Shown: positions 14,352 through 14,777 of the stretch, piece after piece | Numbering within the stretch: position 1 is the first letter of the stretch | Layout: each line of letters begins with the position of its first letter | NCBI GenBank assembly: GCA_964540135.1 | Contig: CAZILK010000004.1 | Coordinates: forward strand, 1-60,952 | Reading direction: 5' to 3' | Origin: an uncultured Candidatus Saccharibacteria bacterium | Lineage (GTDB): Bacteria > Patescibacteriota > WWE3 > UBA101185 > UBA10185 | Length of the DNA: 60,952 bases | The notes under the pieces: model-generated | What the model saw: only the letters and a program-made list of their open reading frames with translations | What the model was told of the DNA's origin: nothing | Databases searched by the model: none | Translations under genes and position numbers: made by a program

Positions 14352-14777
14352 ATGCCAACTATAAACCAAATATTAAGAAAAGAGAGAAAATCAAAGATTG
14401 TTAGAAAGAAAATTAGAGCATTCTCATTTTCTTTTAATACATTAAAAAGAAAACCAGTTGAAAAGAAAGCACCTTATAAAAGAGGAGTTTGCCTTGTTGT
14501 TAAAACACAAACACCTAATAAACCAAACTCAGCTCTTCGCAAAGTAGCAAGAGTTAGGCTGTCAAACGGGTCTGAAATCACAGCCTACATTCCAGGCGAA
14601 GGCCATAGGCTTCAAGAGCACTCAGTTGTTCTTGTAAGAGGTGGTAGAGTTAAAGACTTAACTGGTATAAAATACACAATTGTAAGAGGTAAATACGATT
14701 TATTGGGAGTTGAGAAGAGAAAGAGCTCAAGATCAATTTACGGAACTAAAAAGGAAACTAAAGCAAAAGCTAAATAA
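14352..14777 (+). CDS. rpsL: 30S ribosomal protein S12 (uS12)
   Basis: [22 protein letters not shown]. Confidence 0.98.

Follow-up and report, generated by a model that had tools for sequence, protein, structure and literature searches.

Can a bacterium carry, as its ordinary ribosomal protein S12, a protein that is altered at the streptomycin-resistance positions of both decoding loops, and how would the ribosome accommodate such a protein? The question is raised by the rpsL gene (ribosomal protein uS12, 141 aa; 14352..14777, + strand) of an uncultured Candidatus Saccharibacteria bacterium, which lies on contig CAZILK010000004.1 in a stretch of 60,952 nt (the window, i.e. the whole stretch of DNA that was analysed). 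A preliminary description of this DNA, made from the sequence alone, had placed an Asn codon (AAT, 14517) in the TPKKPNSA loop and a Thr codon (ACT, 14661) in the RVKDLPGVRY loop; both placements were borne out by gapless alignments, and in the numbering of mature Escherichia coli S12 the two changes are K42N and P90T. The explanation that we favour, and hold to be fairly probable, is a single functional rpsL that is intrinsically insensitive to streptomycin and whose N42 and T90 possibly form an epistatic pair, within a phylum that lets these positions vary freely.

Asn42 and Thr90 are fixed wild-type residues of S12

The window has a single S12-like gene, the open reading frame (ORF) at 14352..14777. 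Its product scored 182.3 bits against the TIGR00981 rpsL_bact profile (cut-off 112.95), PF00164 was precomputed for it, and phmmer matched it to S12 chains of the PDB with E-values down to 1.5e-49. The N-terminus is of the long type, as in Firmicutes and Chloroflexota, and the gene order rpoB-rpoC-rpsL-rpsG-fusA-tuf is that of the str operon. Against S12 chains of 137-138 aa from solved ribosomes (7nhn_m, 5nd8_l and 3j9w_AL) the phmmer alignments were gapless over residues 1-135, with N56 of the window protein aligned to the first Lys of TPKKPNSA and T104 to the Pro of KDLPGVRY; a misalignment of the loops was looked for in these alignments and was not found. Aligned globally with its counterpart from E. 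coli K-12, the protein likewise showed K42N and P90T in mature E. coli numbering, which is used from here on. The Asn56 codon AAT (14517..14519, + strand) thus lies in decoding loop 1 (E. coli 38-47; 14505..14534), and the Thr104 codon ACT (14661..14663, + strand) in decoding loop 2 (E. coli 85-94; 14646..14675), both loops being assigned by alignment and encoded on the + strand.

The remainder of the two loops is conserved. In loop 1, P41, K43 and P44 are in the state found in all of the 120 homologs described below, and N45, S46 and A47 match E. coli; in loop 2, R85, K87, D88, L89 and G91 are all canonical. The window S12 therefore lacks the family-typical Lys42 and Pro90 but keeps the other decoding-loop residues that were tested. 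Positions at which streptomycin dependence has been reported are P41, K43, P44, N45, P90 and G91 (PMC3884664), with P41L, K43E, D88E and G91D among the dependence alleles (PMC4182516); P41, K43, P44, N45, D88 and G91 are all canonical in the window protein. Thr is not one of the bulky residues (L, R, E, M, W, Q) with which dependence was reported at position 90, and the allele persists in nine environmental assemblies.

The gene was compared with rpsL of the same species in eight further assemblies. Five of the eight (contigs from Logan, NCBI and ENA, one labelled as a wastewater metagenome) encode an identical S12 protein and the other three a variant that differs by S125T only. The conspecific genes show 0-27 differences per 426 nt from the window gene, AAT and ACT being kept in 8/8. 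Within the species the only nonsynonymous change lies at the adjacent nucleotides 374-375 (codon 125), producing S125T in three loci, and in the most divergent conspecific gene (L005) 27 of 27 nucleotide differences are synonymous. Because divergence across the eight assemblies is synonymous apart from S125T, the two codons are no sequencing error and S12 is under purifying selection. Read support for the codons, which the preliminary description had named as a check, was obtained in this indirect form, from eight independent assemblies, and its proposal that both residues occur in one wild-type gene proved to be correct: N42 and T90 are fixed, and the whole S12 protein is under purifying selection.

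The nearest other lineage comprises a GTDB species representative (L009, for which the source labels conflict, Saccharibacteria versus Parcubacteria) and clusters P0005-P0008, with 87-88% protein identity and 78% DNA identity to the window S12. Over residues 38-117 of the window protein, which make up the whole structured core of 80 codons, there are ∼32 synonymous codon differences from this sister and two replacements only, R56N and P104T, which are exactly E. coli positions 42 and 90. At position 42 all three bases differ (CGA, Arg, in the sister; AAT in the window), and at position 90 a single transversion separates the sister's CCT (Pro) from ACT. One clade further out (P0009-P0014), position 42 is R or S and position 90 is P, and Lys42 occurs in no member of the small clade made up of the window species, its sister and P0009-P0014. 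Since R56N and P104T are the only replacements in the core, both changes fall on one short branch; on this comparison, N42 and T90 are shown to have arisen on the branch to this species, with the core otherwise frozen. Residue-specific scans of GTDB and of metagenomes for intermediates near this species (N42 alone or T90 alone) found no relative closer than the R42/P90 sister at 87-88% identity.

Four resistance-class sites of S12 vary across Patescibacteria

For the variation around this gene, counts were made in the 120 best homolog clusters; every cluster whose source is named belongs to Patescibacteria. At position 42 these carry K in 69 clusters, R in 30, S in 12, T in 3, N and V in 2 each, and M and C in 1 each; at position 85, R in 86, K in 30, S in 2, and A and D in 1 each; at position 87, K in 93, N in 15, Q in 6, R in 4 and P in 2; and at position 90, P in 106, N in 7, A in 3, and T and E in 2 each. 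Positions 41, 43, 44, 88, 89 and 91 (P, K, P, D, L and G) are invariant in 120/120. After three aberrant fused sequences had been dropped, the canonical quartet K42/R85/K87/P90 was present in 42 of 117 clusters (36%), among 27 different combinations. A survey of rpsL in the Candidate Phyla Radiation (CPR) had been proposed from the view of a single gene; its outcome goes beyond that view, with positions 42, 85, 87 and 90 hypervariable across Patescibacteria S12. Clade-wide, these alignments show that the sites that vary are those of the laboratory resistance class (42, 85, 87 and 90), and that the tabulated dependence-class sites do not vary.

The background set, 150 representatives of S12 clusters formed at 50% identity, had K42 in 141 of 148 and P90 in 140 of 143 loops read, with N42 in 0/148 and T90 in 0/143. 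Neither residue was present among 80 GTDB species loci (0/80 for each), in which every Chloroflexota locus had both K42 and P90. Among the 120 best homologs, N42 and T90 occur together in the window species only. The metagenome scan recovered one independent N42 lineage (L092; Ga0315284_10000106, a 111.6-kb contig) with 74% S12 identity and with K85, Q87 and P90, which argues that Asn42 is viable without Thr90 in this phylum. T90 was found in no species other than that of the window across the 120 homologs, the 80 GTDB loci, the background set and the metagenome scan. Our search of the literature likewise found no report of natural S12 variation at the resistance positions K42 and P90 in CPR bacteria, which is not proof of absence.

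Two further variants were seen in the course of these scans. Many loci encode an S12 with K87P (GGRVPDLPG), a change at another streptomycin-resistance position, mostly together with K42. They include seven GTDB loci labelled Saccharimonadales, Saccharimonas or Saccharibacteria (L039, L041, L044, L048, L073, L077 and L078) and 16 metagenome loci (e.g. L124-L125, L137-L140, L142-L144 and L164), and K87P may have a part in the streptomycin tolerance for which TM7 is known. That tolerance was reportedly first predicted from a base change in 16S rRNA near position 912, not from S12; we found no statement in the literature of a 16S basis for it, which again does not prove absence. The second variant, P90I, occurs in an uncultured group of Bacilli/Mycoplasmatota type (GTDB loci L046, L055, L057, L069, L070, L074 and L084-L088; metagenome loci L141, L159, L160, L163 and L167). 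Ile at this position is similar in bulk to Leu, which causes dependence in model bacteria, and in all of the loci that include tuf the encoded EF-Tu has A375S (FSIREGG); the P90I loci may be one clade, and their co-occurrences with A375S hence not independent.

Expected effects of the pair and competing explanations

In the 30S-streptomycin structure of Carter et al. 2000, Lys42 reportedly contacts both the drug and the rRNA backbone at the junction of h27, h44 and h18. Conservation of Pro90 extends to eukaryotes, in which the residue is hydroxylated, and the side chains of Thr and Pro are nearly equal in volume. In Klebsiella, K42N gave a streptomycin minimum inhibitory concentration (MIC) of >1024 µg/ml at a fitness of 0.82, P90Q, P90R and P90L led to streptomycin dependence, and K42R is a cost-free resistance allele in model bacteria (PMC4182516); in Salmonella, K42N lowered read-through and the number of missense errors (PMC6547416). 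What the preliminary description had stated of the two positions, namely that K42N brings resistance with hyperaccuracy and that P90 substitutions give resistance or dependence, is in agreement with the Klebsiella MIC and dependence data and with the Salmonella error rates. For Thermus, PMC3884664 links resistance to small side chains (G, A, C) at position 90 and dependence to bulky ones (L, R, E, M, W), explains P90 dependence by a clash with h44 that distorts A1492/A1493, and describes changes at K42 as internal suppressors of P90 defects.

Residue 42 of the window S12 is aligned as Asn, matching the known resistance substitution. The contact of Lys with streptomycin and rRNA would be lost, and K42N, if it acts here as in every model bacterium tested, would bring high-level resistance with slower, more accurate decoding. 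Residue 90 would pack against h44 near C1490-A1493, and because the volume of Thr is close to that of Pro, Thr90 would perturb the loop without the steric clash of the bulky, dependence-causing replacements. Since laboratory mutants with P90 defects are suppressed by changes at K42, residues 42 and 90 are probably an epistatic pair, and the expected outcome would be a streptomycin-insensitive ribosome with a shifted set-point of accuracy and speed. The organism is thus predicted to be, probably, insensitive to streptomycin by nature, and its accuracy phenotype is probably shifted. Such insensitivity would fit the free variation of the four positions in the phylum and the streptomycin tolerance of its cultivated members (PMC8651080, PMC9698310, PMC9894109). 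Epistasis between N42 and T90 is suggested by their co-occurrence on a single branch and by the laboratory precedent; as K42 changes are known suppressors of P90 defects, the pair may be self-compensating.

Several points weigh against this explanation. What is known of function comes from Proteobacteria and Thermus and would have to hold for a very divergent ribosome as well, and the 16S rRNA of this genome might already block streptomycin binding or alter the roles of residues 42 and 90. P90T is absent among the reported replacements of P90 (G, A and C with resistance; L, R, E, M, W and Q with dependence; PMC3884664, PMC4182516). Across the 117 clusters, the association between non-K42 and non-P90 was not significant (odds ratio 2.6, Fisher p = 0.15). 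Finally, the third rank of position 42 by change frequency among 71 core columns, in itself a point in favour, comes from Fitch counts on a neighbour-joining tree built without the four columns, and such counts are upper estimates that, with a poorly resolved tree and a short protein, probably overestimate recurrence.

A broader account would move the emphasis from the gene to the phylum. The accuracy and streptomycin residues of the Patescibacteria decoding centre (42, 85, 87 and 90) would be free to vary and most of the phylum would be intrinsically insensitive, N42/T90 being one epistatic solution among many natural accuracy variants, probably coupled to changes in 16S rRNA; we regard this as possible, if rather doubtful. 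S12 K42N and P90 variants are textbook matter; here they are natural and fixed. Of more interest than the single gene is the clade-wide pattern, which makes this gene less of a singular case.

An alternative is adaptive resistance: repeated contact with streptomycin-like aminoglycosides, released by producers or present in polluted habitats such as wastewater, could have driven both N42/T90 and the turnover at positions 42, 85, 87 and 90, making resistance the selected trait and not a by-product. The confinement of variation to the resistance class, with the tabulated dependence sites invariant (PMC3884664, PMC4182516), the wastewater label of one allele-carrying assembly and the arrival of both changes on a single branch, with the core frozen elsewhere, are consistent with such selection. 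We nevertheless consider it unlikely: exposure is not evidenced, the same pattern would be expected if the four sites merely tolerated change, and the cost-free K42R (PMC4182516) is already present in the sister lineages, leaving the step to N42/T90 unneeded for resistance.

Silent drift seems to us quite unlikely. It would require that accuracy and drug binding no longer depend on residues 42 and 90 in a Patescibacteria ribosome with divergent 16S rRNA, an altered protein set and slow growth, so that N42 and T90 are nearly neutral. The low share of canonical clusters (36%, among 27 combinations) would fit this, as would the lack of visible compensation in S4, S5 and EF-Tu and the CPR-type peculiarities of the genome's ribosome (no L30 gene and a short L3, described below). 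Against it, neither residue changes within the species despite synonymous divergence of up to 6%, and the residues next to them in the two loops do not vary, which argues that the loops still act at the decoding centre.

The preliminary description had itself suggested a remodelled decoding centre, possibly compensated in S4, S5, EF-Tu or 16S rRNA. On such a model the S12 allele would be costly, either hyperaccurate or dependence-like, and second-site changes in these components would rescue it. There is precedent for such rescue: E. coli K42N is compensated through rpsD and rpsE (S4 L198P and I199S; S5 G108V/A and G86C; PMC13631001), S4 I199N is a further compensatory change (PMC6547416), and P90L of Thermus is suppressed by 16S C1490U (PMC3884664). 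The sites tested in the window, in S4 the C-terminus (L198, I199) and the Q53/Y50 region and in S5 G108, G86 and G28, were taken from PMC13631001, PMC6547416 (I199N) and general background. In S5 (rpsE, 26082..26558, + strand), examined for ram or compensatory changes, none was found: G27, G108 and R111 are canonical, and comparison with 119 relatives and E. coli left only T79S and S129T, both conservative and both present in other relatives. The column of E. coli G86 is variable in all relatives, poorly alignable and uninformative. In S4 (rpsD, 31087..31722, + strand, full length), Y50, Q53, L198, I199 and the C-terminal motif are canonical. The rpsD ORF as called has an N-terminal extension of 12 residues that is absent from most relatives.

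An outlier test, counting departures from columns at least 85% conserved among ∼120 relatives, gave for S5 2 departures in the window against a median of 2 (30th percentile), for S4 5 against 3 (69th percentile) and for S12 5 against 2 (86th percentile), so that S4 and S5 of the window are no outliers in unusual substitutions. The one unusual S4 residue is F46 (GQHGTKFGK) in the column of E. coli K44, presumably part of a basic patch near the mRNA entry channel; it is Phe in the window, Tyr in conspecific contigs and Arg in 93% of relatives. An aromatic residue in this column is common to clusters P0402-P0406, the small clade without Lys42 in S12, which would favour rescue. We take P0402 and P0404 to lie on the same contigs as the sister S12 clusters P0005 and P0012, which have R42 and P90, since their longest contigs are equal in length; as the aromatic residue is thus found in P90 sister lineages too, the S4 change would predate N42/T90, and it was rejected as compensation. 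EF-Tu keeps A375, which is a site of EF-Tu mutations that interact with S12 phenotypes, and EF-Tu R381L was rejected as a candidate since it is common in Chloroflexota with canonical S12.

The window contains no rRNA (0 hits at Rfam gathering thresholds over 60,952 nt) and no tRNA or tmRNA (0 by ARAGORN), and at 61 kb it is unusually free of RNA genes for a ribosomal-protein region. Compensation in S4, S5 or EF-Tu, as originally suggested, was not borne out: the literature-named sites in S4 and S5 are canonical, bar the poorly alignable S5 G86, and no specific compensation is visible in the three proteins. We regard rescue by second-site changes as improbable. The weakest alternative, a sequencing or assembly error, a loop misalignment or a decaying extra gene copy, is rejected on the gapless alignments and on the agreement of nine assemblies on both codons, with an intact ORF far above the family cut-off in the str operon and within-species differences that are synonymous except at codon 125 (S125T), and is the only alternative to be excluded.

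The surrounding region, wider meaning and likeness to known systems

The str-operon context of rpsL is encoded on the + strand throughout. Upstream lie rpoB (7468..10668) and rpoC (ORF from 10625), the rpoB-rpoC block spanning 7468..14350; downstream are rpsG (14781..15245), fusA (15248..17329) and tuf (17477..18652), the last encoding the EF-Tu with A375. The rpoC ORF as called starts at a TTG (10625) and overlaps the end of rpoB by 44 nt (10625..10668). Its true start is probably further downstream, as the profile match begins at residue 30. In the S10 operon, rpsJ and rplC are separated by a spacer of 128 nt (18978..19105) with a GC-rich hairpin, AGCGCCCTAGGGCGCT, at 19079-19094 and the run TTTTTTT behind it, an arrangement that resembles an intrinsic terminator or attenuator; a scan of the region gave 7 terminator-like sites against 3.7 expected. 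The product of rplC (19106..19537) is an L3 of only 143 aa, whose match to L3_bact covers profile positions 103-202 only; its N-terminus (...PVTVV) resembles a normal L3 start, and ∼60 internal residues are seemingly missing. Because L3 of the sister L009 (14722..15150; 142 aa) has the same short form, the shortening is a conserved lineage trait and no frameshift. The end of S5 (26558) directly adjoins the start of L15 (26560), with no L30 gene between them (26082..27003); absence of L30 is the usual state in CPR/Patescibacteria.

If our favoured explanation of N42 and T90 is true, a large bacterial radiation would be able to do without K42 and P90, two residues regarded as nearly universal in the decoding centre. 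With 27 combinations at four positions, Patescibacteria S12 could serve as a natural data set for the questions of why these residues are conserved elsewhere and how tiny, slow-growing epibionts tune accuracy and speed. Should these positions indeed be free to vary across the phylum, the S12 variants of Patescibacteria would amount to a natural mutational scan of the decoding centre. A prediction is that streptomycin, already used for Saccharibacteria, would be selective for many other CPR lineages, and S12 would be pointed to, beside 16S rRNA, as a basis of CPR streptomycin tolerance. For resistome surveys, the data suggest that point mutations called in metagenomic rpsL can be natural lineage markers and are not necessarily acquired resistance.

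The closest known counterparts are the rpsL K42N alleles of E. coli, Salmonella and Klebsiella, in which the same Lys of the TPKKPNSA loop is replaced by Asn. They are mutants from the laboratory or the clinic, with a fitness of ∼0.82, whereas Asn42 in the window species is a fixed wild-type residue that is paired with Thr90 and comes without the known compensatory changes in S4 and S5. The P90 series and K42/P90 double mutants of Thermus thermophilus (Carr et al. 2005 and Bjorkman et al. 1999, via PMC3884664) offer the same combination of a replaced h44-adjacent Pro with a change at K42; the P90 series of that account was engineered or selected and does not include Thr, whereas the pair described here is natural. 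The other S12 variants of Patescibacteria (R42 or S42 in the sister lineages; N42/K85/Q87 in L092) share the family, operon and hypervariable positions of the window gene, but none of them pairs N42 with T90. Cultivated Saccharibacteria (TM7x and TM7i), which like the window organism belong to the CPR, tolerate streptomycin and are enriched with it (PMC8651080, PMC9698310, PMC9894109), and the Saccharimonadales loci, many of them with the resistance-position change K87P, differ from the window species in both lineage and residue.
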